A DNA stretch of 14,460 nucleotides from Calditrichaceae bacterium (lineage in GTDB: Bacteria; Calditrichota; Calditrichia; Calditrichales; JBFXGD01), in assembly GCA_050173015.1 (NCBI GenBank), contig JBFXLE010000045.1, forward strand, positions 1 through 14,460, given 5' to 3'. A program made the translations under genes and the position numbers. Positions 211-14,240 of the stretch are shown here, one piece after another (the first letter of the stretch is position 1; the number at the start of each line of letters is the position of its first letter). The notes beneath the pieces are model-generated. The model ran no database searches and was not told where the DNA came from. It saw nothing but the letters and a program-made list of their open reading frames with translations.

Positions 211-529
211 GGGAAACGGATTAAAGCCTTTGGTAAAACATCTGTATAACGCCAGCCTCTTGATATTTTCATTCCTATTGTTTAAAATGATAACGTTTTT
301 AGTTTTATCTTTTGTTTTTTCTTCAATCATTGTAAATGATTACAAAGTTGAGTTTAGTATAAATTGATGTCGCTTATTATTTGGATATTGTCCCATGCCG
401 GTTTTATAAAAACAAACAGTTTTGGTATAGGGAGTGGTTCAAAAAGCCTTATTCTATTGAACGGAGGCGTGACCGGTTTTCGACGGTTAATTTTTCCAAT
501 ATTTGAATGGAATGAAAATTAGCAGAGAC

Positions 530-552
530 AACTAATCGATATGTTAGATGCA
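530..552 (+). other. Integron-type core site (G^TTAGATGCA), possibly an attI-like simple site
   Basis: GTTAGAT (543-549) fits GTTRRRY. GTTAGATGCA (543-552) is the exact reverse complement of TGCATCTAAC (2193-2202) at the cassette end. It is preceded by AACTAAT plus a 6-bp spacer, which resembles an L box. Confidence 0.6.
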
Positions 553-579
553 ATGATATTTTAACAATTGTGATCTGTT

Positions 580-2187
580 ATGATAAACGTAAATAAAATT
601 TTTGATGATTTTTTCCAACACGATGAAAAAAAAGTAATCGTGTTTAAAGGTAAATGGGGCACTGGAAAAACTTATTATTGGAAAAAATATATTAAATCCA
701 AAAAGGATTTTACCGAAAAAATTATATCTTATGTTTCCTTATTTGGATTGGAAAATATAAATGAAGTTAAAGCCATGATTTTTGAAAATGCAGAGTTTGT
801 AAATCCAGACACATATAAAGACACTATTAAATCGATGGCTAAAAAATCTTATTCTCTGGTACGCCATTTACCAAAAGTTAAAGAATTCAAAAACTTAGCA
901 TCTAAAATTGAAAATTCCTTAATTAAGAATTTTATTATATGTTTGGATGATTTAGAACGCAAATCAGACAAATTAAGGCTCTCACAAATATTAGGTTTGA
1001 TATCAGTATTAAAAGAAGAAAGTCAATGCAGATTCATATTAATTTTTAATGAATATTCATTATCAGAGCAGGACCTAAAAGACCTAAATATTTATAGAGA
1101 AAAAGTGATAGATCTGGAAATATTATATAATCCGAATATTAGCGATAATGTCAAATTAATATTCACACACCACAGGTTCCATATTCTTATAGAAGATTTA
1201 TTTAATAAATTACAAATAAAAAATATTAGAGTTATGAAACAGACTCAATGGAACATAGATTACTTTGCCAAACATATGGATGATGTTGAAGAAACTTTGG
1301 TTGAACGAATAATTAGTAATGTAATATATATATCTTGTTTTCATTATCATGATCAATTTAATTTCGATATTACAACTCTAAAAAAATTAACAGAACAAGA
1401 ATTTCTACGTTCACTTGATAGGGAAAATAAATCTGATGTTGTTTCTGTAACATCATTTGGATATAGATATTTGGAGATCGATGAATTTATCATTGAATAC
1501 ATTAGATATGGATTTATAAATAATAATGATTTTGAGGTAATGTTAAAAGATTTGAACGAAAAAGAAGTAAAATATAAAATTTCTGAAACACTTGGAGAAA
1601 TCTGGAGAATTTATAATTCAAATTTTATTGGAACTTCAGATCGATTTATTAATAAGGCTACTGAATATTTAAATGAATATTCAGGTGGACTTTCAGAACG
1701 CGATTTAAATCAAATATGTACATTTCTTCAAGAACTAGATAATTCAATCGATACAACTCGTTGGAAAGATAATTTTATTAAAACTAATATTGAAAAATTT
1801 AAATTTGATGATTTAAATAGAATCATGAGTATGACCAATGATCAAAATATTATTAAATATTTAACTGATAAGATCGATGAATTGAAAGAATCAAAAACAA
1901 TTAAAAGCATAGTTTATTATATTGTTGAACACAGTGGTTGGAATCCGACAGATCTAATTTTTCTAGACAATTATTCAGAAGATGATTATTTAAATTGGTT
2001 GAGAAATGAAAGTGATCAAAATTTACTTATTTACTTAAGAGATTTTTTAAAAACTTTTAATAGTAATAGTGCAGAAAAAATTTATAGATCAATAGGAACA
2101 AAATTAGAAAATTCAATCAAAATACTTGCAAAAGAAAACAAATTTAATCTAATACGGGCACAAAATTTATTTAAAATGGATATATAA
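580..2187 (+). CDS. KAP-family P-loop NTPase (PifA-like fold), integron cassette gene
   Basis: Walker A VIVFKGKWGTGKT with the typical G-x-W-G-x-GKT signature, YVSLFG strand, Walker B IICLDDLER and YREKVID motif. Very AT-rich. The C-terminal ~300 aa has no recognisable motif. Confidence 0.85.
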   Translation: MINVNKIFDDFFQHDEKKVIVFKGKWGTGKTYYWKKYIKSKKDFTEKIISYVSLFGLENINEVKAMIFENAEFVNPDTYKDTIKSMAKKSYSLVRHLPKVKEFKNLASKIENSLIKNFIICLDDLERKSDKLRLSQILGLISVLKEESQCRFILIFNEYSLSEQDLKDLNIYREKVIDLEILYNPNISDNVKLIFTHHRFHILIEDLFNKLQIKNIRVMKQTQWNIDYFAKHMDDVEETLVERIISNVIYISCFHYHDQFNFDITTLKKLTEQEFLRSLDRENKSDVVSVTSFGYRYLEIDEFIIEYIRYGFINNNDFEVMLKDLNEKEVKYKISETLGEIWRIYNSNFIGTSDRFINKATEYLNEYSGGLSERDLNQICTFLQELDNSIDTTRWKDNFIKTNIEKFKFDDLNRIMSMTNDQNIIKYLTDKIDELKESKTIKSIVYYIVEHSGWNPTDLIFLDNYSEDDYLNWLRNESDQNLLIYLRDFLKTFNSNSAEKIYRSIGTKLENSIKILAKENKFNLIRAQNLFKMDI

Positions 2188-2195
2188 TTTAGTGC

Positions 2196-2325
2196 ATCTA
2201 ACAAACGGCTTAAACGGGAAGCGAACAACGTGGCATGAATTTCAATAATTTCATGTTTTGGAAACACATTTGTAATTCAAAAATTGTGTTTCGATGTTCG
2301 CTCCCCTCAGCCTGAACCGTTTTAT
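2196..2325 (+). other. attC recombination site (about 130 bp)
   Basis: R'' ATCTAAC begins 9 nt after the stop codon, followed by a 5-bp spacer and L'' GCTTAAAC. Arms GGGA-A-GCGAACA / TGTTCGC-TCCC have an extrahelical base. There are two internal hairpins (CATGAA/TTCATG; GAAACACA/TGTGTTTC), a degenerate L' CCTCAGC, and R' GTT at 2319-2321 (GTTTTAT, non-consensus). Confidence 0.8.
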
Positions 2326-2448: not shown

Positions 2449-4902
2449 ATGGCAGTAAAAAAATCGGATTTATACAGTTCACTTTGGGCAAGTTGTGATG
2501 AGCTACGCGGAAGTATGGATGCCAGCCAATATAAGGATTATGTATTGGTGATGCTGTTCATGAAATATGTATCCGACCGTAAAGACCCGTTAATTGAAAT
2601 CCCCGAGGGTACCAGTTTTTATGATATGCTCAAACACCGGGGCAAATCAGACATTGGCGACCAGATCAATAAAATCATTGGGGAGTTTGCCAAAGTAAAC
2701 GGGCTGACCGGTATCATCACCGAAGCGGATTTTGACGATAGTGCCAAACTGGGCAGCGGAAAAGACAAAGTTGATCTACTGACAAACCTGTTAAATATCT
2801 TTAATAAACCGGAACTCAATTTCAGTAAAAACCGCGCCGAGGGGGATGATCTGCTGGGCGACGCATACGAATACTTGATGCGTCACTTTGCTACGGAAAG
2901 TGGTAAAAGTAAAGGACAGTTTTATACACCGGCTGAAGTTTCACGTATTATGGCGCAGGTTATCGGTATCGAGAAATCGGTGAGTCAAACAGAATCAATT
3001 TATGACCCGACATGCGGATCGGGTTCTCTTTTGTTAAAAGTTGCCGATTTAGCGCCGCATGGGATTACCATTTACGGACAGGAAAATGAAAATGTTAACC
3101 GTGCCTTAGCCGTGATGAATATGTGGCTGCATAATTTTTCCGACGCCGATATTCAGCAGGGCAATACAATGGCCAATCCCCTGTTCACCGATGAAACCAC
3201 TGGAGAACTGAAACAATTTGATTATGCTGTGGCCAATCCGCCTTTCAGTTATAAAAAGTGGATGAACGGTTTGGACCCGCTGAATGATGTCTATAAACGC
3301 TTTGAAGGCTATGACGCCATCCCACCCAAAAAGAATGGCGACTTTGCCTTTCTGCTGCATCTGATCAAATCTTTAAAATCCAAAGGAAAGGCGTGTATTG
3401 TTTTGCCGTTGGGTGTGCTGTTTCGAGGCAATGCGGAAGCAACGATCCGGAAAAAAATCATTCAAAAGGGGTACATTAAAGGCATTATCGGCTTGCCGCC
3501 CAACCTGTTTTACGGCACCGGAATCGCCGCCAGCCTGATTGTGATTGACAAGGAAGGAGCCGACCAACGCGACACTATTTTTATGATTGACGCCAGCCGT
3601 GGGTTTATCAAAGACGGCAATAAAAACCGCTTGCGCGAGCAGGACATTCATAAAATTGTGGATACCTTTAACAACCGCATCACCACTGATCCCAAATATG
3701 CCCGTGACATACCCATTGAGGAAATTTCCGACGCCAGGAATGATTACAATCTGAATATCCCGCGTTATATTGACAGTCAGGAGGTGGAAGATATCCAGGA
3801 TATTGAAGCCCACCTACTGGGCGGCATTCCCAAACGGGATATTGAGGCACTCGAAAAATACTGGGCGGTTTACCCATCGCTGAAAAAACATCTTTTTAAA
3901 CAAATAGCAGCGCGTCAGGATTACTATCAATTAAACTGTGGCACCGAAGAAATAAAGAGCATTATATTCGGTCACCCCGAGTTCAGCGCTTTTGGGAAAT
4001 CAATGGATGAGGTTTTTAAGGAATGGAAAACAGAAATCGCTGCCTACACCAAAGCATTTGAAAAAGACATAAAACCCAAATTAGAAATCGCAAGAATTTC
4101 CGAGAGGATTTTATTCTATTACAACGATAAGCCCCTTACCGACAAATATGCCATGTTCCAGCATTTAATGGATTACTGGGCGGAAACAATGCAGGACGAT
4201 TTTTACGAACTGGCCGCCGAAAGCTGGGAGGCAGGCAACCAGGTGATACGCATGGAAAAGAAAACCAAAAGGGGCGATAAAGAAATTTCCAAACCGGTAG
4301 CCGGTCTGGATGGACTGGAAGGCAGGCTGATTCCCCCGCAACTCATTATTAAAAAATACTTTGCCGTTGAACAAAAAGCTATCGATGATTTGGAAGCAGA
4401 GGCGGAACGCTTGAATGCCGTGATGGAAGAAATTCGCGAAGAGCACGGCGGCGAAGAGGGATTGCTTACTAACGCGCTAGACGACAAGGGCAAAATAAGC
4501 AAAGGCAATTTGGGCAAAGCACTGAAAGAACTGGGCAAACGGGATGAAGACATTGCCGAAGAGTATGACAAGCTCATGCAGTATAAAAAACTGCTGGATG
4601 ATGAAAAGGCGGTAAAGGACAAAATTAAAACCGCCAATTCAGAATTAGAAAAAAAAGTAATTGCCCAATATCCAAAACTAAGCATTGACGAAATTAAAAC
4701 ATTGGTTGTGGATAAAAAATGGCTGACGGAAATGGAAAGCCGCATCCGCAATGAAATGGACAATATCAGCCACCGGCTGACCCAGCGCATTAAGGAACTA
4801 GCGGAACGCTACGAAATGCCCTTTCCTAAATTAAGTGAGGATGTGGAGAATTTTACCGGTAAAGTTGAACAACACTTAAAAGAGATGAATTTCAGATGGT
4901 AG
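2449..4902 (+). CDS. hsdM: Type I restriction-modification methyltransferase subunit M (long form with C-terminal helical extension)
   Basis: N-terminal LWASCDELRG, GQFYTPAEV, SAM-binding YDPTCGSGSLL, catalytic NPPF (m6A), GVLFRG and YNLNIPRY. RBS-like AAGGA upstream. Confidence 0.97.
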   Translation: MAVKKSDLYSSLWASCDELRGSMDASQYKDYVLVMLFMKYVSDRKDPLIEIPEGTSFYDMLKHRGKSDIGDQINKIIGEFAKVNGLTGIITEADFDDSAKLGSGKDKVDLLTNLLNIFNKPELNFSKNRAEGDDLLGDAYEYLMRHFATESGKSKGQFYTPAEVSRIMAQVIGIEKSVSQTESIYDPTCGSGSLLLKVADLAPHGITIYGQENENVNRALAVMNMWLHNFSDADIQQGNTMANPLFTDETTGELKQFDYAVANPPFSYKKWMNGLDPLNDVYKRFEGYDAIPPKKNGDFAFLLHLIKSLKSKGKACIVLPLGVLFRGNAEATIRKKIIQKGYIKGIIGLPPNLFYGTGIAASLIVIDKEGADQRDTIFMIDASRGFIKDGNKNRLREQDIHKIVDTFNNRITTDPKYARDIPIEEISDARNDYNLNIPRYIDSQEVEDIQDIEAHLLGGIPKRDIEALEKYWAVYPSLKKHLFKQIAARQDYYQLNCGTEEIKSIIFGHPEFSAFGKSMDEVFKEWKTEIAAYTKAFEKDIKPKLEIARISERILFYYNDKPLTDKYAMFQHLMDYWAETMQDDFYELAAESWEAGNQVIRMEKKTKRGDKEISKPVAGLDGLEGRLIPPQLIIKKYFAVEQKAIDDLEAEAERLNAVMEEIREEHGGEEGLLTNALDDKGKISKGNLGKALKELGKRDEDIAEEYDKLMQYKKLLDDEKAVKDKIKTANSELEKKVIAQYPKLSIDEIKTLVVDKKWLTEMESRIRNEMDNISHRLTQRIKELAERYEMPFPKLSEDVENFTGKVEQHLKEMNFRW

Positions 4903-6101
4903 AGGAATTTAAACATACAGAATTAGGATGGATTCCGAAAGAATGGGAGGTTAAAACTCTTGGTGAAGTTGGTGAAGTTAGAATGTGCAAGAGAGTATTT
5001 AATCGCCAAACTAATCAAACAGAGCAAGTTCCTTTTTATAAAATTGGAACGTTTGGCAAAGAACCAGATGCATTCATTCCAGAATCACTATTTAAGAATT
5101 ACAAAAAAAAGTTCGCTTATCCTAAAAAAGGAGACATACTCATATCAGCATCAGGCACAATTGGCAGAACTGTGGTATTTGATGGGAAGCCAGCATATTT
5201 CCAAGATTCTAATATTATTTGGCTTGCCAATAATGATCAACTTATATCAAATGAATTTTTGTATCACATTTATCAAGTCGTAAAATACAATACTGAGGGT
5301 GGAACAATTCAAAGGTTGTATAATGATGTTATAAATACTACTAAGTTTATATGCCCCCCCACCAAAGCCGAGCAAACAACCATTGCCACTGCCTTAAATG
5401 ACGCCGACAACCTTATTGCCGCGCTGGAAAAACTGATTGCCAAAAAACGGGCCATAAAACAAGGCGCCATGCAGGAGTTGCTGCGCCCGAAGGAAGGGTG
5501 GGAGGAGAAAGAATTGAGTAAAACGGCAATACTGAAAGCACGAATTGGCTGGCAAGGGCTAACGACCGCTGAATACAGAGATTCAGGTGATTATTATTTG
5601 ATAACAGGGACAGAATTTGAAAACGGTTTTATAAATTGGGATAAATGTCATTATGTTGATTATGAGAGGTATAAGCAAGATAAAAATATTCAAATACAAA
5701 ATCGTGATGTATTAGTAACAAAAGATGGAACGATCGGGAAAGTAGCACTAATAAGAAATAGGTTAAAACCAGCAACCCTTAATAGCGGTGTCTTTGTCAT
5801 CCGACCAATAGATAATTCATTTTATCCAGAGTTTTTCTATTATTTATTAATGTCTGAAGTATTTTTGACTTTCCTTTCACAATTAAGTGCTGGTTCAACG
5901 ATTCACCATCTTTATCAAAAGGATTTCGTTACTTTTAAATTTATGATACCGAATTCAATTGATGAACAAAGGAATATATCAAGAATTCTTGCCGATATGG
6001 ACAACGAAATCACCGAATTAGAAAAGAAACTGGCTAAATACAAACTTCTCAAACAAGGGATGATGCAGGTGTTGTTGACGGGGAAAATACGGTTGGTGTG
6101 A
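4896..6101 (+). CDS. hsdS: Type I restriction-modification specificity subunit S
   Basis: TELGWIPKEWEV start. Two TRDs separated by the conserved PPTKAEQTTIATALND...KQGAMQELL helix. C-terminal EQRNISRILADMD...KQGMMQVLLTGKIRL. Overlaps the hsdM stop. Confidence 0.96.
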   Translation: MVEEFKHTELGWIPKEWEVKTLGEVGEVRMCKRVFNRQTNQTEQVPFYKIGTFGKEPDAFIPESLFKNYKKKFAYPKKGDILISASGTIGRTVVFDGKPAYFQDSNIIWLANNDQLISNEFLYHIYQVVKYNTEGGTIQRLYNDVINTTKFICPPTKAEQTTIATALNDADNLIAALEKLIAKKRAIKQGAMQELLRPKEGWEEKELSKTAILKARIGWQGLTTAEYRDSGDYYLITGTEFENGFINWDKCHYVDYERYKQDKNIQIQNRDVLVTKDGTIGKVALIRNRLKPATLNSGVFVIRPIDNSFYPEFFYYLLMSEVFLTFLSQLSAGSTIHHLYQKDFVTFKFMIPNSIDEQRNISRILADMDNEITELEKKLAKYKLLKQGMMQVLLTGKIRLV

Positions 6102-6123
6102 TGGTTTGGTTGTTGTGGTTAAC

Positions 6124-6261
6124 GTAGAGACGCAATGTTTTGCGTCTCTACCCAATACGACAAAACCGGATTCAACACGTAGAGACGCAATGTTTTGCGT
6201 CTCTACCCAATACGACAAAACCGGATTCAACACGTAGAGACGCCATGCATGGCGTCTCTAC
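6124..6261 (+). repeat. Three GTAG-family REP palindromes (28 bp, 55-bp period) upstream of RAYT
   Basis: GTAGAGACGCAA-TGTT-TTGCGTCTCTAC at 6124-6151 and 6179-6206, and the perfect palindrome GTAGAGACGCCATGCATGGCGTCTCTAC at 6234-6261. The two 27-bp linkers are identical. Confidence 0.95.
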
Positions 6262-6318
6262 CACGGGGTGACCCAATAACCCAAACAACCGATTCAACAA
6301 TAAATTGGCGGATGACAA

Positions 6319-6948
6319 ATGGATAAATTTAAAAACAAATACCGCATTCCATCGGCTCGGTTGCCCCATTGGGATTACGGCGCCAACGCCGCATATTTTG
6401 TCACCATTTGCACAGCGCACCGCGTTTGTTTTTTCGGGGATATCCAAAACCATGAAATGCAATTATCACCCATCGGTAAAATCGTGGAAACCGAATGGCG
6501 GAAAACGTTTGAATTGCGACGGGATATGAATCTGGAAATGGATGTGTTTGTGGTGATGCCCAATCATTTTCACGCCATCATTATTATCGGTGAAAACGAA
6601 TTTAACACAAATCCGGAAAACCAACGTAGAGACGCCATGCATGGCGTCTCTACCAATACGATAAACCCGGAAAATCCACGTAGAGACGCCATGCATGGCG
6701 TCTCTACAGGCAAACCACCCCAAAACAAATTCGGGCCGCAATCAAAAAATTTATCATCGATCATCCGAGGATTTAAATCGGCGGTCACCATTGCCGCCCG
6801 GCAAATCGATGCGGAATTCGCCTGGCAATCCCGGTATTACGACCACATCATCCGCGACGAAAAAACCTATTTTAACATTCATGAATACATCATCAATAAT
6901 CCCCGACAATGGGATCGGGACGATTATTATAACAGGCGGGAACAATGA
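6319..6948 (+). CDS. rayT: REP-associated tyrosine transposase (RAYT, Y1/HUH, IS200-related)
   Basis: RLPHWDY..YFVTICT, HUH motif VVMPNHFHAII, LSSIIRGFKS, WQSRYYDHIIR and catalytic YIINNP. GTAG REPs lie upstream and within the gene. Its TGA overlaps the hsdR ATG (ATGA 6945-6948). Confidence 0.93.
   Translation: MDKFKNKYRIPSARLPHWDYGANAAYFVTICTAHRVCFFGDIQNHEMQLSPIGKIVETEWRKTFELRRDMNLEMDVFVVMPNHFHAIIIIGENEFNTNPENQRRDAMHGVSTNTINPENPRRDAMHGVSTGKPPQNKFGPQSKNLSSIIRGFKSAVTIAARQIDAEFAWQSRYYDHIIRDEKTYFNIHEYIINNPRQWDRDDYYNRREQ
6626..6707 (+). repeat. Two in-frame REP palindromes inside the RAYT coding sequence
   Basis: GTAGAGACGCCATGCATGGCGTCTCTAC at 6626-6653 and 6680-6707. The 54-bp period equals 18 codons, translated as RRDAMHGVST twice. 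Confidence 0.95.
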
Positions 6949-9900
6949 CATCTAATATCGGCAAAAAAGAACGCGAAACCCAGAATCGCATCGTGACGCT
7001 CTTCCAAAACGAACTCAAATACCGCTATCTGGGTAACTGGGAAGAAAGAGAAGATAACAGCAATCTGGAAGAAGACATTTTAGAAGATTGGCTGCTGAAC
7101 AAACAGAAGATTGACAGTAATTTGGTGGTAAAGGCAATCTATGAATTCGGAAAAGCCGTAAACGACCAGAGCCGTTCGCTTTATGATGTGAATAAAGAAG
7201 TTTATTCCATGTTGCGTTACGGCGTAAATGTTCAGCCCGAAACCGGGCAGAAAAAACAAACGGTGGATCTGATCGATTGGGAAAATCCGATGAACAATGA
7301 TTTTGCCGTCGCTGAAGAAGTCACTATCAAAGGAATGCATGAAAAACGCCCCGATATTGTTCTTTATGTTAATGGAATTGTTTTAGGTGTTCTGGAATTA
7401 AAACGCAGCACTGTTTCAGTATCTGAAGGTATCCGCCAGAATCTTGATAACCAGAAACACATTTTTATTAAATCCTTTTTTAATACGATTCAATATGTCA
7501 TGGCGGGCAACGACATTGAAGGTATTGCCTACGGCGTAATCGAAACCAAAGAAAAATATTTTCAGAAATGGAAAGAGGTCAGCGAAGAAAATAATAAAGA
7601 TCATCATTATCTTTTAGAACTTACAAAGCCCATTCGTAACTGTGCTGCGAAATACGAATATCCTTTAGACCGGAATGTGGTAGAGTTGCTGAATAAAGAG
7701 CGTTTCCTTGAATTGATTCACAATTTTATTGTGTTCGACCGCGGTATAAAAAAACTGGCGCGTCCCAACCAGTATTTTGGCGTGAAAGCAGCACAGGATT
7801 TTATCCGGCGAAAAGAAGGAGGTATCATCTGGCATACTCAGGGCAGTGGTAAAAGTTTGACCATGGTCTGGCTGACTAAATGGATTCGTGAGTTTAATGA
7901 TAACGCCCGTGTTTTGGTAATCACCGACCGTGAAGAATTGGACGAGCAAATTAAAAAGGTTTACACTGGCATTGATGAAGATATTTATCGCACAAAAAGC
8001 GGTAAGGATTTACTGCATAAATTAAACGATACCACCCCTTGGCTGATGTGTTCTTTGGTCCACAAGTTTGGCGGCAAAGAGGAAATAGATGACAAGGATA
8101 TGGACGCCTATCTGAATGAACTGCGCAGCAATATCCCGTCTGATTACAAAGCCAAAGGGGATGTTTACGTTTTTGTGGATGAATGCCATCGCACCCAATC
8201 AGGAAAACTGCACGAAGCAATGAAGCAATTTTTGCCTAATGCTCATTTTATCGGATTTACCGGAACGCCGCTATTAAAAACAGACAAACAAACCAGTCTG
8301 GAGGTTTTTGGCAAATATATTCACACCTATAAATTTGATGAAGCCGTAAAAGACAAAGTGGTTTTGGATTTACGCTATGAAGCGCGTGATATTGAGCAGA
8401 ATATTACTTCTGAAGACAAAATTGACGAATGGTTTGAAATTAAAACCCGTGGACTTACAGATTTTGCCAAAGCGGAGTTGAAACAAAAATGGGGTACTCT
8501 GAAAAAGATATTCAGTTCCAGGTCTCGTTTGGAAAAAATAGTTCTTGATATTGTCATGGATATGGAGAAAAAGGAACGCTTGCAAAACGGCAGAGGGAAT
8601 GCACTGTTAATTTCTGATAGTATTTACAATGCTTGCCGTTATTTTGAATTGTTCCAGAATGCCGGGTTAAAAAACTCTGCCATTATCACTTCGTATGTTC
8701 CGACACATACAGATATTAAAGGTGAAGAATCGGGAGAAGGCTATACTGAAAAACTACAGCGTTTTGAGATATACCGCAAAATGCTGGCAGTGTATTTTAA
8801 TGAGGATCCGGATACCGCCATCAATAAAGTGGAACAGTTTGAAAAAGAAGTGAAGAAAAAGTTTGTGGAAGAACCGGCGCAGATGAAACTGCTCATTGTG
8901 GTCAACAAACTGCTCACCGGTTTTGATGCTCCCCCTGCGACTTATTTATACATCGATAAAAAATTGAGAGATCATGGATTGTTCCAAGCGGTATGCCGGG
9001 TTAACCGTCTGGATGGCGACGATAAAGATTATGGCTATATTATAGACTACATGGATTTATTTAAAAGTCTCGAAAAGGCTTTTGAAGATTATACATCCGA
9101 AGCCTTAAGCGGTTATGAGGAATCGGATATTAACGGACTGCTGAAAAACAGGCTGCAAAAAGGTAAAGAAAGACTGGAAGAAGCGATAGAAGCCATCAAA
9201 GCATTGGTTGAACCAGTTGATCCACCCAAAGACACTTTAGCACATATTCGATATTTCTGCGGTAAGGATACCGGAAATCCAGATGAACTCAAAGATACGG
9301 AACCGAGACGGGCTTCATTATACAAGCTTACCATTGCCCTAATGCGTGCTTATGCTAACGTCGCCGATGAAATGAAAGAAGCCGGTTATTCGGACAAGCA
9401 AATTGATGAAATTAAAACCGACATTAAACATTTTGAAAATCTGAGGAAAGAAATTCAACTTGCCAGTGGTGACTATATCGACTTGAAGCAATATGAGCCA
9501 GCCATGCGTCATTTGATAGACAGTTACATTGGTGCGGAAGAAAGCCGCATGCTGGCCAATTTTGATGATTTGACTCTGGTCGAATTGCTGATCGAAAAAG
9601 GTGAGGATGCGCTAAAGGATGTTCCTAAAAATATACGGGATGATAAAGATGCAATGGCGGAAACTATTGAAAACAATTTACGCCGGGTGATTATTGAAGA
9701 GAGTCCGACCAACCCTATGTATTATGAAAAGATGAGTGTTTTACTGGAAGAGTTAATAAAGCTCAGGAAAGCACAAACGGAAGAATATGAACAATACCTG
9801 AAAAAGATCATCGAACTTTCAGGTAAAATAAAACGACCCTCGACTACTGTGGACTATCCTTCAGCGGTTGATACCGATGCAAAAAGAGCCTTATATGATA

Positions 9901-10100
9901 ATCTTCAAAAGAATGGAGACCTGGCAGCCCAATTAGATCAAAAAATCCTGACAACAAAAAAAGATGGCTGGCGGGATAACCTTCAAAAATCAAAAGCTGT
10001 TAGACTCGCTATAAAAGACGTGTTGCAGGATTTCGGAATATCCAGGGAAGAAGATATTCATCGGATATTCGATCTTGTTAAGAATCAAAGAGATTATTAA
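6945..10100 (+). CDS. hsdR: Type I restriction endonuclease/translocase subunit R
   Basis: Nuclease motif RPDIVLYVNG...ELK, Walker A WHTQGSGKS, ITDREELDEQ, DECHR, GFTGTP, LLTGFDAP and QAVCRVNR. Confidence 0.97.
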   Translation: MTSNIGKKERETQNRIVTLFQNELKYRYLGNWEEREDNSNLEEDILEDWLLNKQKIDSNLVVKAIYEFGKAVNDQSRSLYDVNKEVYSMLRYGVNVQPETGQKKQTVDLIDWENPMNNDFAVAEEVTIKGMHEKRPDIVLYVNGIVLGVLELKRSTVSVSEGIRQNLDNQKHIFIKSFFNTIQYVMAGNDIEGIAYGVIETKEKYFQKWKEVSEENNKDHHYLLELTKPIRNCAAKYEYPLDRNVVELLNKERFLELIHNFIVFDRGIKKLARPNQYFGVKAAQDFIRRKEGGIIWHTQGSGKSLTMVWLTKWIREFNDNARVLVITDREELDEQIKKVYTGIDEDIYRTKSGKDLLHKLNDTTPWLMCSLVHKFGGKEEIDDKDMDAYLNELRSNIPSDYKAKGDVYVFVDECHRTQSGKLHEAMKQFLPNAHFIGFTGTPLLKTDKQTSLEVFGKYIHTYKFDEAVKDKVVLDLRYEARDIEQNITSEDKIDEWFEIKTRGLTDFAKAELKQKWGTLKKIFSSRSRLEKIVLDIVMDMEKKERLQNGRGNALLISDSIYNACRYFELFQNAGLKNSAIITSYVPTHTDIKGEESGEGYTEKLQRFEIYRKMLAVYFNEDPDTAINKVEQFEKEVKKKFVEEPAQMKLLIVVNKLLTGFDAPPATYLYIDKKLRDHGLFQAVCRVNRLDGDDKDYGYIIDYMDLFKSLEKAFEDYTSEALSGYEESDINGLLKNRLQKGKERLEEAIEAIKALVEPVDPPKDTLAHIRYFCGKDTGNPDELKDTEPRRASLYKLTIALMRAYANVADEMKEAGYSDKQIDEIKTDIKHFENLRKEIQLASGDYIDLKQYEPAMRHLIDSYIGAEESRMLANFDDLTLVELLIEKGEDALKDVPKNIRDDKDAMAETIENNLRRVIIEESPTNPMYYEKMSVLLEELIKLRKAQTEEYEQYLKKIIELSGKIKRPSTTVDYPSAVDTDAKRALYDNLQKNGDLAAQLDQKILTTKKDGWRDNLQKSKAVRLAIKDVLQDFGISREEDIHRIFDLVKNQRDY

Positions 10101-11050: not shown

Positions 11051-11284
11051 GGCCGCCCAAATGGGGACGCCCCTACTCTTAACTCCCAACGCATAACTCT
11101 TAACAATTCTTACTTCCAACTTCCCACTTCTTACTTTGCCCCGAAAACAACCCCCTTAGTCCCCCTTTGGTAAGGGGGAAACTGCCCGTTGTTACTCTTT
11201 TATCTTTTATCTTAATTTCCACCCGAAGGGGTCGCGGGGTTACGTGGTATGTGTTTACTACAATAATTTCATCCCTTCGGGATT
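11051..11284 (+). repeat. Mosaic intergenic repeat, copy B (intact hairpin at 11160-11179)
   Basis: Degenerate reverse GTAG-REP head (...GGGGACGCCCCTAC), AACTCTT/ACTTCTT heptamers, CCCCCTTAGTCCCCCTTTGGTAAGGGGGAAACTGCCCGTT core, then the segment shared with 94-210. Confidence 0.93.
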
Positions 11285-13035: not shown

Positions 13036-14112
13036 CTAGGCAGCTGTTATTTCATCCTTTCTCCAACGATACGGTTCATATTTCCGACCATTTTTAAGCA
13101 TACTTAAACTTACCTTTGCCAGGTAACGACTTACCATCTGGTGCGCCTGCTTATCGGTCAGTCCTTTTGCAATCAGGGTCTGATAATATTCATATACCGG
13201 ATTATGGCCACCCTGAATGGCGGTGTATGCCGCATTTTTATAAACTTCTTTTAACAACCGGTTATAACGGGGGCGGCGTTTGCCATAGTTCTTATTGCCG
13301 CTGCTTTTTTCCAGCCAGACCAGTCCGCAATACGAAAGGTAAGAGCCTTTTTTGGCAAAACGTTGTGGCTGAATAACCACCGCTAATATCTTAAAGGCAT
13401 TGATGTAACCTATGCCCGGCAAAGCCATGATATTTTTCACCGCGCTTTGACCATTTACTATTTTTTTTATCTCTGCTTCAAATGCGGCTTTATCTTCACG
13501 GTATTTTTCTATCATGCTCTCCTGCCAGTCAATGATTATTTTATAGTGACCGGGGTGACTAAGAAGCGCCTGATGTTCCGTTTTGTCACATTTGCTGTAT
13601 CGCATACCCCGGGCTCTGTAAAGGGCGCTACGTTGATTTTGCACGCGAACCCCTGCCTTGACAAGATCCTCATAAGCGCTTAAAAGGTGGCGCAGGTGAT
13701 ACAACCTGTCACAACTGTGAAATACTTCCTTTAGGAAACCACCCCGAAGAAGACTGCATAATTTCATCGCATCATATTTATCTGTTTTGGGGCCATCGCT
13801 TAAAAGATGATTGTAATAGGGATCACATATAACTATTCTGTCCACCACATCTGTTAGCTCCACATATAGCCAATGTGATGAAGTGGTCTCCTCAATGGTG
13901 AGTATCTTTTTTCCTTTCAAAGAAAACAGATGCTCTTTTAGCTCCTTTAAATTACTCTTCCTCCATTCAACGACTTTTATCCTGGGACTCTTTTGAGTCA
14001 TACGGGCCAGGGCAACGCTTTCCTGTGACCAGTCCAAAGCAAGGTAGTGATCATAATAATCCAAATTATCCTTGTAATTGCTCTTTGGGCTATTTAACAT
14101 TGAGGTGTTCAT
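13036..14112 (-). CDS. IS110-family transposase/recombinase (DEDD RuvC-like domain plus Tnp20 domain)
   Basis: LALDWS, IEET and KTDKYDA form the DEDD tetrad; LPGIG and YCGLVWLEKSSG carry the conserved serine. The start is placed at ATG 14112 (358 aa) rather than 14160 because AGAAAGGAG lies 6 nt upstream. Confidence 0.93.
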   Translation of the reverse strand: MNTSMLNSPKSNYKDNLDYYDHYLALDWSQESVALARMTQKSPRIKVVEWRKSNLKELKEHLFSLKGKKILTIEETTSSHWLYVELTDVVDRIVICDPYYNHLLSDGPKTDKYDAMKLCSLLRGGFLKEVFHSCDRLYHLRHLLSAYEDLVKAGVRVQNQRSALYRARGMRYSKCDKTEHQALLSHPGHYKIIIDWQESMIEKYREDKAAFEAEIKKIVNGQSAVKNIMALPGIGYINAFKILAVVIQPQRFAKKGSYLSYCGLVWLEKSSGNKNYGKRRPRYNRLLKEVYKNAAYTAIQGGHNPVYEYYQTLIAKGLTDKQAHQMVSRYLAKVSLSMLKNGRKYEPYRWRKDEITAA

Positions 14113-14240
14113 AAAGGTCTCCTTTCTTTTTTGAGATGTCATTTTACAAATGTATTTCATACATTTCTACACCATTAAAGATTGTGAGACCTTTTTCTCA
14201 ATTTACCGACAGGCCGGATTTTTCGAGGTTAACAGTATTC

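Follow-up and report, generated by a model that had tools for sequence, protein, structure and literature searches.

The attI1 site of class 1 integrons is used as a recipient in double-stranded form and has a GTTRRRY core at its end; promoterless cassettes are joined to it by crossover at G|TT, and the promoter Pc lies upstream. Lone integron cassettes outside integrons are also known, and integron cassettes are known as a store of anti-phage genes. Here we describe a gene for a KAP-family P-loop NTPase, and the DNA in which it is embedded, in a contig of a Calditrichaceae bacterium. The window analysed is this entire 14,460-bp contig, which belongs to a genome of 54 contigs, 4.34 Mb and 41.9% GC. 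In the labels used below, G000 is this genome (the window being G000:C45), C denotes a contig, G0xx other genomes and L retrieved loci or stretches. The explanation that accounts best for the whole, and which we regard as probable, is that a promoterless cassette was captured at an attI-like platform, with a candidate anti-phage NTPase as its cargo.

The closest described arrangements differ from this locus in their recipients. According to the part of the work of Loot and co-workers that is considered here, cassettes insert at GWT sites of genomes, promoters nearby can express them, single attC sites lacking an integron integrase (SALINs) are widespread, and the attG sites that serve as recipients are very numerous and do not resemble att sites (10.1101/2022.09.11.507474). 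As far as that part describes them, such cassettes resemble the one in the window in having a single attC with one gene, no nearby integrase, a G|TT insertion outside a classical integron and an expected resident promoter. However, the recipient in the window is one fixed nucleotide that ends a conserved repeat and is used by at least six cassettes. By analogy with attI and Pc, this repeat, which we call the type B platform, appears to share the G|TT crossover, the promoterless cassettes and the upstream promoter, whereas it exists as 14 dispersed copies with no adjacent intI, has about 250 nt between promoter and core, and carries TTC-N8-GAA palindromes. The main text of a study of chromosomal integrons reports many defence systems in their cassettes, and the present case is similar to these sedentary biobanks, as described there, in having compact defence or candidate genes as cassettes, with restriction-modification (RM) and single-gene cargo (10.1101/2024.07.02.601686). 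It differs in having single cassettes on scattered platforms in place of one long integrase-linked array. The terms KAP, NTPase and PDC have no occurrences in the main text of that study, and a non-exhaustive literature search turned up no account of attI-like sites that exist in many copies and lack an integrase. The cassette itself is of a known kind; what is new is the repeated promoter-bearing docking platform, a recipient with no integrase attached at which different cassettes are found at one nucleotide in six places.

The cassette and its attC site

The elements of the locus are the following.

259-543, plus strand: type B platform, a non-coding repeat of about 285 bp ending in ...CGATATG, with G543 as the recombination junction
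543-552, plus strand: left junction GTTAGATGCA, composed of a G contributed by the platform and of TTAGATGCA, the 9 nt with which the cassette begins
544-2319, plus strand: almost certain integron-type gene cassette, 1776 bp, 25.6% GC
580-2187, plus strand: KAP-family P-loop NTPase gene, 535 amino acids (aa), intact, ATG at 580 and TAA at 2185-2187
Residues 24-31 of its product: Walker A motif GKWGTGKT
Residues 121-127 of its product: Walker B motif CLDDLER
2196-2325, plus strand: attC, a 130-bp imperfect palindrome
2196-2202, plus strand: R'' box of attC, ATCTAAC, the inverse core, fitting RYYYAAC
2207-2213, plus strand: L'' box of attC, GGCTTAA, which faces L'; one extra base in the 5' arm
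2217-2228 and 2295-2306, plus strand: 12-bp stem of attC joining both arms
2307-2312, plus strand: L' box of attC, TCAGCC, which faces L''
2319-2325, plus strand: R' box of attC, GTTTTAT, with G from the cassette and TTTTAT from the recipient

That positions 544 to 2319 form an integron-type gene cassette can hardly be doubted. A first-pass annotation of the window had claimed a complete cassette signature, and on reading the sequence all of its elements stand where they were placed. The word at 543-552 lies 37 nt 5' of the ATG at 580, and TGCATCTAAC at 2193-2202 is its exact 10-nt complement. This flanking inverted repeat rebuilds a consensus GTTAGAT core, which the circular form reconstitutes from G2319 and positions 544-549. 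In the linear form R' keeps the GTT of GTTRRRY but not the RRRY part, and the description of the downstream GTTTTAT as non-consensus was therefore accurate. The attC had been claimed with L and R boxes and an extrahelical base. The boxes, the 12-bp stem and the fold agree with this, the extrahelical base or bases being assigned by eye. The predicted folding of the bottom strand is borne out by calculation (-26.8 kcal/mol, z -4.60, none of 200 shuffles as good), and the top strand folds with -24.5 kcal/mol (z -3.54). A heuristic attC scanner ranked the site first in the window, at -25.9 kcal/mol; this scanner missed known sites and confused strands, and no counts were taken from it. An Rfam scan of the window gave no relevant match for the attC, the identity of which was judged by comparative evidence, namely homologous sites and a covariance model built from homologues. 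The gene is also much more AT-rich than hsdM, as had been noted, with 24.5% GC for the KAP open reading frame (ORF) against 44.1% for hsdM and 41.9% for the genome.

The cassette geometry is rare in this genome. A GTT-initiated word of at least 9 nt located at most 60 nt upstream of an ORF, with its reverse complement at -12 to +40 of the stop, was found for only 4 of 3214 ORFs of at least 150 aa. These are the KAP gene, two more genes that likewise stand on a type B platform, and C4:7431-8411, and attC-like sites follow all four. The locus has one attC with a gene and no other attC or intI in the contig, which is the definition of a SALIN, and no second attC was found in the 14.46-kb contig. 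The cassette is thus solitary at its locus, as the first-pass annotation had it, while the statement that there is no further attC stands for the window and fails for the genome, which holds at least seven more. A second site of the same attC type was found in the genome neither by BLAST nor by the covariance model R1. The ORF at C4:7431-8411 is a further single-gene cassette, of 326 aa, framed by GTTAGGTTT and AAACCTAAC and provided with an attC; it does not stand on a type B platform, and an apparent other attC end precedes it.

The annotation had proposed a search for similar attCs elsewhere, and this search was productive. It covered 41 relatives first and then all 86 genomes of the class, and the DNA comparison yielded 128-nt homologues in G040:C163 (80% identity), G047:C360 (79%) and G049:C38 (74%). 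Five other matches, of 22-43 nt and with E-values from 2e-4 to 1e-2, were treated as noise. The gene 5' of the homologous site differs from genome to genome. In G040 the site trails a 319-aa gene of no family, which is flanked by GTTAGCATGT upstream and ACATGCTAAC past the stop; this is the same inverted repeat as in the window, with both sides changed together in a compensating manner, and the next unit is an alpha/beta hydrolase gene framed by GTTATATGG and CCATATAAC. In G049 a 107-aa gene, one of a series of small ORFs, precedes the site. The G047 site is about 120 nt away from a divergent tyrosine-recombinase gene, measured to its 5' end; the contig stops inside this gene, the product of which scores 58 bits to TIGR02249 and is 32% identical to the IntI of G040. 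The covariance model R1, made from four bottom strands with 22 pairs, found one site outside its training set, G013:C94 (60.3 bits, E 3.6e-11), which is the last of several attC-framed units, and a weak match in G081 (27 bits). Each of the four homologues (G040, G047, G049 and G013) is one of several attC-like sites in a row. Applied to related arrays with its filters switched off, R1 proved too specific and added only a weak match beside the KAP gene of L123.

G040 and G013 have integron integrases above the curated TIGR02249 cut-off of 265 bits, with scores of 473.9 bits and, for a gene in two pieces, 368.3 bits. A short integrase-like ORF beside the G040:C163 array was rejected as IntI; it has only an N-terminal SAM-like domain, and IS91-like motifs in another frame. 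The attC that follows a 410-aa gene on C20 (L136:2448-2547) has a homologous attC in the array of G040 (L019:6165-6263), so the two lineages share more than one attC type.

A repeated platform and its probable role in docking

Positions 259-549 of the window are homologous to other places in the genome, and the homology always stops at the junction. A fuzzy search with the last 33 nt gave 14 platform copies, nine of which end in ...ATATG|TTA and diverge completely after that. The KAP cassette is joined at G|TT to the terminal base of the platform. In 6 of the 14 copies the 9-11 nt that follow the G recur, as an exact reverse complement, where the last ORF of the unit ends, and behind each of these six complements lies a hairpin that has R'', L'' and L' boxes and an R' of the GTTA type. 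The chance expectation for such matches of at least 9 nt is about 0.5 over 14 x 9 kb. In a control with mismatched pairs, 10 of 182 pairs match over at least 9 nt; four of these come from neighbours whose units overlap, and the remainder fits chance (about 6 expected), except for one further real attC on C1. The six units carry different cargo.

C1:72671: RadC, 796-aa methylase and 483-aa specificity subunit, an RM-like trio, 4.5 kb
C4:36247: transglutaminase-like gene, unknown gene and FGE-sulfatase-like gene, 2.9 kb
C7:75004: 300-aa gene (L135:5073-5975, minus strand), a PDC-S14 candidate, E 1.9e-54
C20:79836: Rce1-like gene
C20:76582: methylase and MjaI-type endonuclease, then a second cassette of 410 aa
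C45:543: KAP gene of the window

Because the same platform nucleotide is used in at least six copies, the platform behaves as an attI-like docking site. That it is a preferred docking site is highly probable; whether it is also recognised, in the manner of attI, by a dedicated integrase appears to us an evenly balanced question. PADLOC was run on 13 platform units, the unit at C4:32400 being left out, and matched PDC-S14, a type II RM pair, the RM-like trio of RadC, methyltransferase and specificity subunit, PsyrTA and HerA. Defence-type cargo is found in 6 of the 13 units, including the KAP unit and one that counts on a weak PDC-S51 match plus HerA. PsyrTA at C1:58062 (L141:2900-6027, minus strand; E 2e-259 for PsyrT and 5e-80 for PsyrA) comes immediately after a platform copy in which the GTT core is missing. 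The PDC-S14 cassette at C7:75004 is followed immediately by the gene for a type I restriction subunit of 801 aa, as the KAP cassette is by hsdM. An HsdR-like fragment 5' of the C7 platform was considered and is unrelated to the downstream hsdR.

An alignment of 10 copies shows that the platform starts with a conserved promoter-like site of the sigma70 type, TTGAAA-17-TATAAT, represented in the window by TTGATA at 260-265 and TAAAAT at 283-288 with a score of 10/12. Since a promoter would not fit into the 36 nt from junction to ATG, expression of the gene is expected to start from the platform promoter. No plus-strand promoter-like site was found at 2326-2448, in front of hsdM. Only one sequencing run, probably that of the source sample, contains the stretch, and no RNA run is listed for it. 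Farther down, at about 494-507, the window copy contains the TTC-N8-GAA palindrome TTCCAATATTTGAA. Platform copies carry one to four such palindromes, and 17 of the 33 near-matches in the whole genome fall within the 14 copies. Other identities of the repeat were tried and rejected. It is not a coding remnant, since stops interrupt every one of the six frames; the ATG at its end does not serve as a start codon, stops coming within 4-8 codons; and as a structured RNA leader it has an RNAalifold consensus of only -2.2 kcal/mol.

An integron integrase was not found in the genome, where the best of nine TIGR02249 matches scores 87.6 bits against the cut-off of 265. A tblastn search with the IntI of G040 returned only XerC/D-like and phage-type recombinases, and the recombinase on C16 was rejected as an integron integrase, being of the phage or integrative-conjugative-element type and having an excisionase-like neighbour. 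Any integrase therefore acted in trans or was lost, which agrees with the trans action proposed in the first-pass annotation. Five decayed 3' ends of tyrosine-recombinase genes are present (C9 at about 105.8, 110.3 and 119.1 kb, C5:153625-153789 and C43:2557-2685), none of them intact. About 110 nt beyond each C-terminal remnant comes ...ACG(A/C)AC|GTT... and then unrelated sequence. These ends are a second, integrase-linked docking platform, and the vestige on C5 abuts the 5' half of a type B platform. With no intact integron integrase and only decayed ends, the cassette is probably frozen now.

Several observations count against an attI-like role of the platform. No integrase able to use the platform was found in this genome or in the one other genome of the genus. 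Among the genomes searched, the platform was seen only in its own genome and, in a degenerate form, in one other genome of the genus; a metagenome scan with the platform end gave five stretches, of which only L147 is related, being the same unit as C20:79836. No similarity was detected between the platform and the integrase-proximal regions of G040, G047 and others. Eight of the 14 copies have no recognisable cassette signature and five have no G|TTA core. Finally, no empty site, excised form or cassette-skipping joint was present in the contigs of one sequencing run that holds the stretch.

We raise only tentatively the idea that the genus might possess an integron of a distributed kind. Its identical promoter-operator platforms, at least 14 in number and each ending in an attI-like G|TTA core, would capture promoterless cassettes shared by the class (RM systems, PDC-S14, the KAP NTPase and others), with one regulator acting on the TTC-N8-GAA palindromes and the integrase working in trans or lost. 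If this were true, the captured defence genes would form a genome-wide co-regulated regulon and not one array beside one integrase. More generally, if an integrase recognises the platform, integron-type capture would be spread over many expression sites in one genome. The platform bears on the origin of integrase-less cassette clusters and on the expression and regulation of captured defence genes.

The KAP NTPase as cargo

The identification of the cargo as a KAP NTPase is upheld by a Pfam match to KAP_NTPase (PF07693) of 25.5 bits over a cut-off of 20, confined to residues 16-87, and by the Walker A and B motifs. At least 231 relatives from many phyla were found at E <= 1e-3 among 8000 scored candidates of a large protein collection, the nearest with 53% identity and the next with at most 33%. 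An alignment of 32 relatives shows no variation at G24, G27, G29, K30, D123, D124, E126 and R127. An AlphaFold2 model (pLDDT 88.3, pTM 0.72) has an alpha/beta NTPase core and, C-terminal to it, a half that is all-helical. Foldseek against the PDB retrieved only ATPase cores (ORC/Cdc6, RFC, MuB, TnsC, the NLRP3 NACHT domain and Avs5), with E-values starting at 2.7e-5 and TM by query of at most 0.32, and in the Atlas the C-terminal helical half resembles only other KAP-family proteins. Neither a relevant PDB relative by sequence nor an NCBIfam family was found.

Members of the KAP family are described as having transmembrane helices inserted in the NTPase domain. Such helices are not seen in this protein, in which no membrane segment was detected (maximum Kyte-Doolittle mean over 19 residues, 1.15). 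The first-pass annotation had drawn an analogy with PifA, the phage-exclusion protein of plasmid F, for which no support was found. The window protein is like PifA and the classical KAP NTPases in being a KAP-family P-loop NTPase by Pfam and apparently unlike them in having no membrane segment and in matching only PDC-S49 in PADLOC, a library that presumably includes a PifA model. Three PDC-S49 models match (E 1.6e-22, 5.5e-18 and 1.7e-07) and nothing else does at E <= 0.01.

The family recurs in cassettes elsewhere. From contigs of one genome per species, in which 586 of 600 candidate stretches were confirmed, 80 loci with KAP relatives were kept. A flanking GTT word matching over at least 7 nt occurs in ten of them. 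Seven of these (L050, L073, L075, L105, L119, L123 and L128) have the canonical geometry, with GTTAT... 10-25 nt before the start and the complement over the stop or at most 4 nt from it, and most have attC-like hairpins; the other three were discounted, their matches being far from the gene ends. An IntI homologue, 44-51% identical to the IntI of G040, lies within 6 kb in four of the 80 loci (L123, L105, L080 and L070). At least 9 distinct loci of the 80, from several phyla, thus have the KAP relative in a cassette or next to an IntI. This adds a soluble KAP-like NTPase family (PDC-S49), in the form of a compact single gene, to the known cargo of cassettes. Together with the PDC-S49 match, the recurrence sustains the earlier proposal of a candidate defence gene as integron cargo.

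The neighbours of these relatives were surveyed in 36 loci, with two ORFs per side, 142 ORFs in all, two duplicate loci dropped and no matched background. PADLOC at E <= 1e-10 matched 17 of the 142 flanking ORFs, in 13 of the 36 loci, with Gabija GajA, RM enzymes and several PDC candidates among them. Several other matches are generic (MotB-, RtcR- and RecD-like), and with no matched background the flanking defence matches give modest support only.

It would be consistent with these observations that the KAP protein is a soluble KAP/STAND-like P-loop NTPase with an anti-phage function, a proposal to which we attach neither more nor less weight than to its negation. Its most likely role would then be that of a single-gene, nucleotide-dependent sensor of infection, the helical C-terminal half of which would read a phage cue. 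A number of points argue against such a function. PDC-S49 is only a candidate defence system, and a literature search found no paper that names it. The best PDC-S49 match aligns residues 20-301 with profile positions 27-326 of 624, which leaves the C-terminal half of that profile unmatched. No recognisable effector domain emerged from the PDB, Foldseek, Atlas and NCBIfam comparisons, and the share of flanking ORFs with defence matches is small. It is accordingly conceivable, although somewhat doubtful, that the cassette is real and its NTPase is not anti-phage, but a selfish or addiction-type, regulatory or other NTPase cargo. Most integron cassettes are of unknown function, and this view would suit the lack of an effector domain, the candidate label and the modest defence context of the homologues. 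It is less easily reconciled with the PDC-S49 match at E 1.6e-22, with a family that is patchy across phyla and recurrent in integron cassettes, and with the company of the gene, which consists of RM here and of RM, PDC-S14 and PsyrTA on sister platforms.

Proposed capture, alternatives and neighbouring genes

In the mechanism that we favour, the cassette would have been circularised and then inserted by a tyrosine recombinase of the integron type. Its attC bottom strand would fold, and recombination with the end of the platform in double-stranded form would take place by crossover at G|TT. In this way the platform, to which no integrase is linked, could serve both for attI-like docking and for expression. 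The KAP gene would be transcribed, if at all, from the platform promoter, possibly with read-through into hsdM.

The surroundings of the cassette are listed here.

2449-4902, plus strand: hsdM of the type I RM operon (operon 2449-10100)
4896-6101, plus strand: hsdS of the type I RM operon
6319-6948, plus strand: 209-aa ORF, REP-associated tyrosine transposase-like (NF047646, 61 bits, below the cut-off of 80)
6945-10100, plus strand: hsdR of the type I RM operon
3' of hsdR: YgjP-like gene, then Rce1-like gene
13036-14160, minus strand: IS110-family transposase gene, near the contig end

As annotated, the KAP cassette lies directly upstream of the type I RM operon, with hsdM starting at 2449. 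This position could be due to chance insertion at a secondary site of the attG type, the solitary cassette then providing RM with an abortive back-up. Such an event would leave what is seen at the locus (a single attC, a GTTTTAT core downstream and no intI), and insertion at 5'-GWT-3' genome sites, expression near promoters and common SALINs are on record in the part of the literature considered (10.1101/2022.09.11.507474). We nevertheless regard it as unlikely. Six different cassettes share the same junction nucleotide of a 285-bp repeat, and with about 10 GWT sites per leader a coincidence is very unlikely; other platforms hold cassettes without neighbouring RM. The first-pass notion of insertion at an ordinary secondary site is contradicted by the 6 of 14 platform copies that carry cassettes at the same nucleotide, and the abortive back-up role is pure inference. 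Nor is the RM operon shown as a cassette in its own right, since no R'' complementary to the hsdM-side core GTTTTATTGC over at least 10 nt was found. The first 16 nt past the attC resemble the start of the RM-like cassette on C1 in 12 of 16 positions, which is only a hint.

The order of events could also have been the reverse, with the cassettes resident first and the platform arriving second as a small mobile promoter element that targets their G|TT 5' boundary. Elements of the IS1111-attC type and class C-attC group II introns are known to target attC sites. The platform is multi-copy, non-coding and restricted to one genus, in a genome full of interspersed repeats, and some of its copies are truncated or rearranged, for example on C5. 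However, no attC body was seen 5' of the platform copies inspected, no platform transposase or terminal repeats were seen, and the five copies without the GTT core still precede genes; such an origin is therefore improbable to a high degree. The remaining idea, that there is no cassette at all and the hairpin is a terminator or repetitive extragenic palindrome-like element beside a chance inverted repeat, finds its occasion in the position 3' of a stop codon and in a repeat-rich genome, and can be dismissed in view of the missing T-run 3' of the hairpin, the absence of a predicted plus-strand terminator at 2196-2330, the homologous sites that trail unrelated genes with compensating core changes, and the mere 4 of 3214 ORFs with this geometry.

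Some minor features of the window remain. No tRNA was found. Rfam matches at 6127-6710 are to spurious miRNA families and were rejected; those at 6620-6710 fall inside the 209-aa ORF. A 121-nt direct repeat, 98% identical, occurs at 90-210 and 11164-11284; between its two copies lie the platform, the KAP cassette, the type I RM operon and the YgjP-like gene. The families of short interspersed repeats to which it belongs have dozens of copies, and many of these are found at contig ends (C30, C35, C48 and C49).

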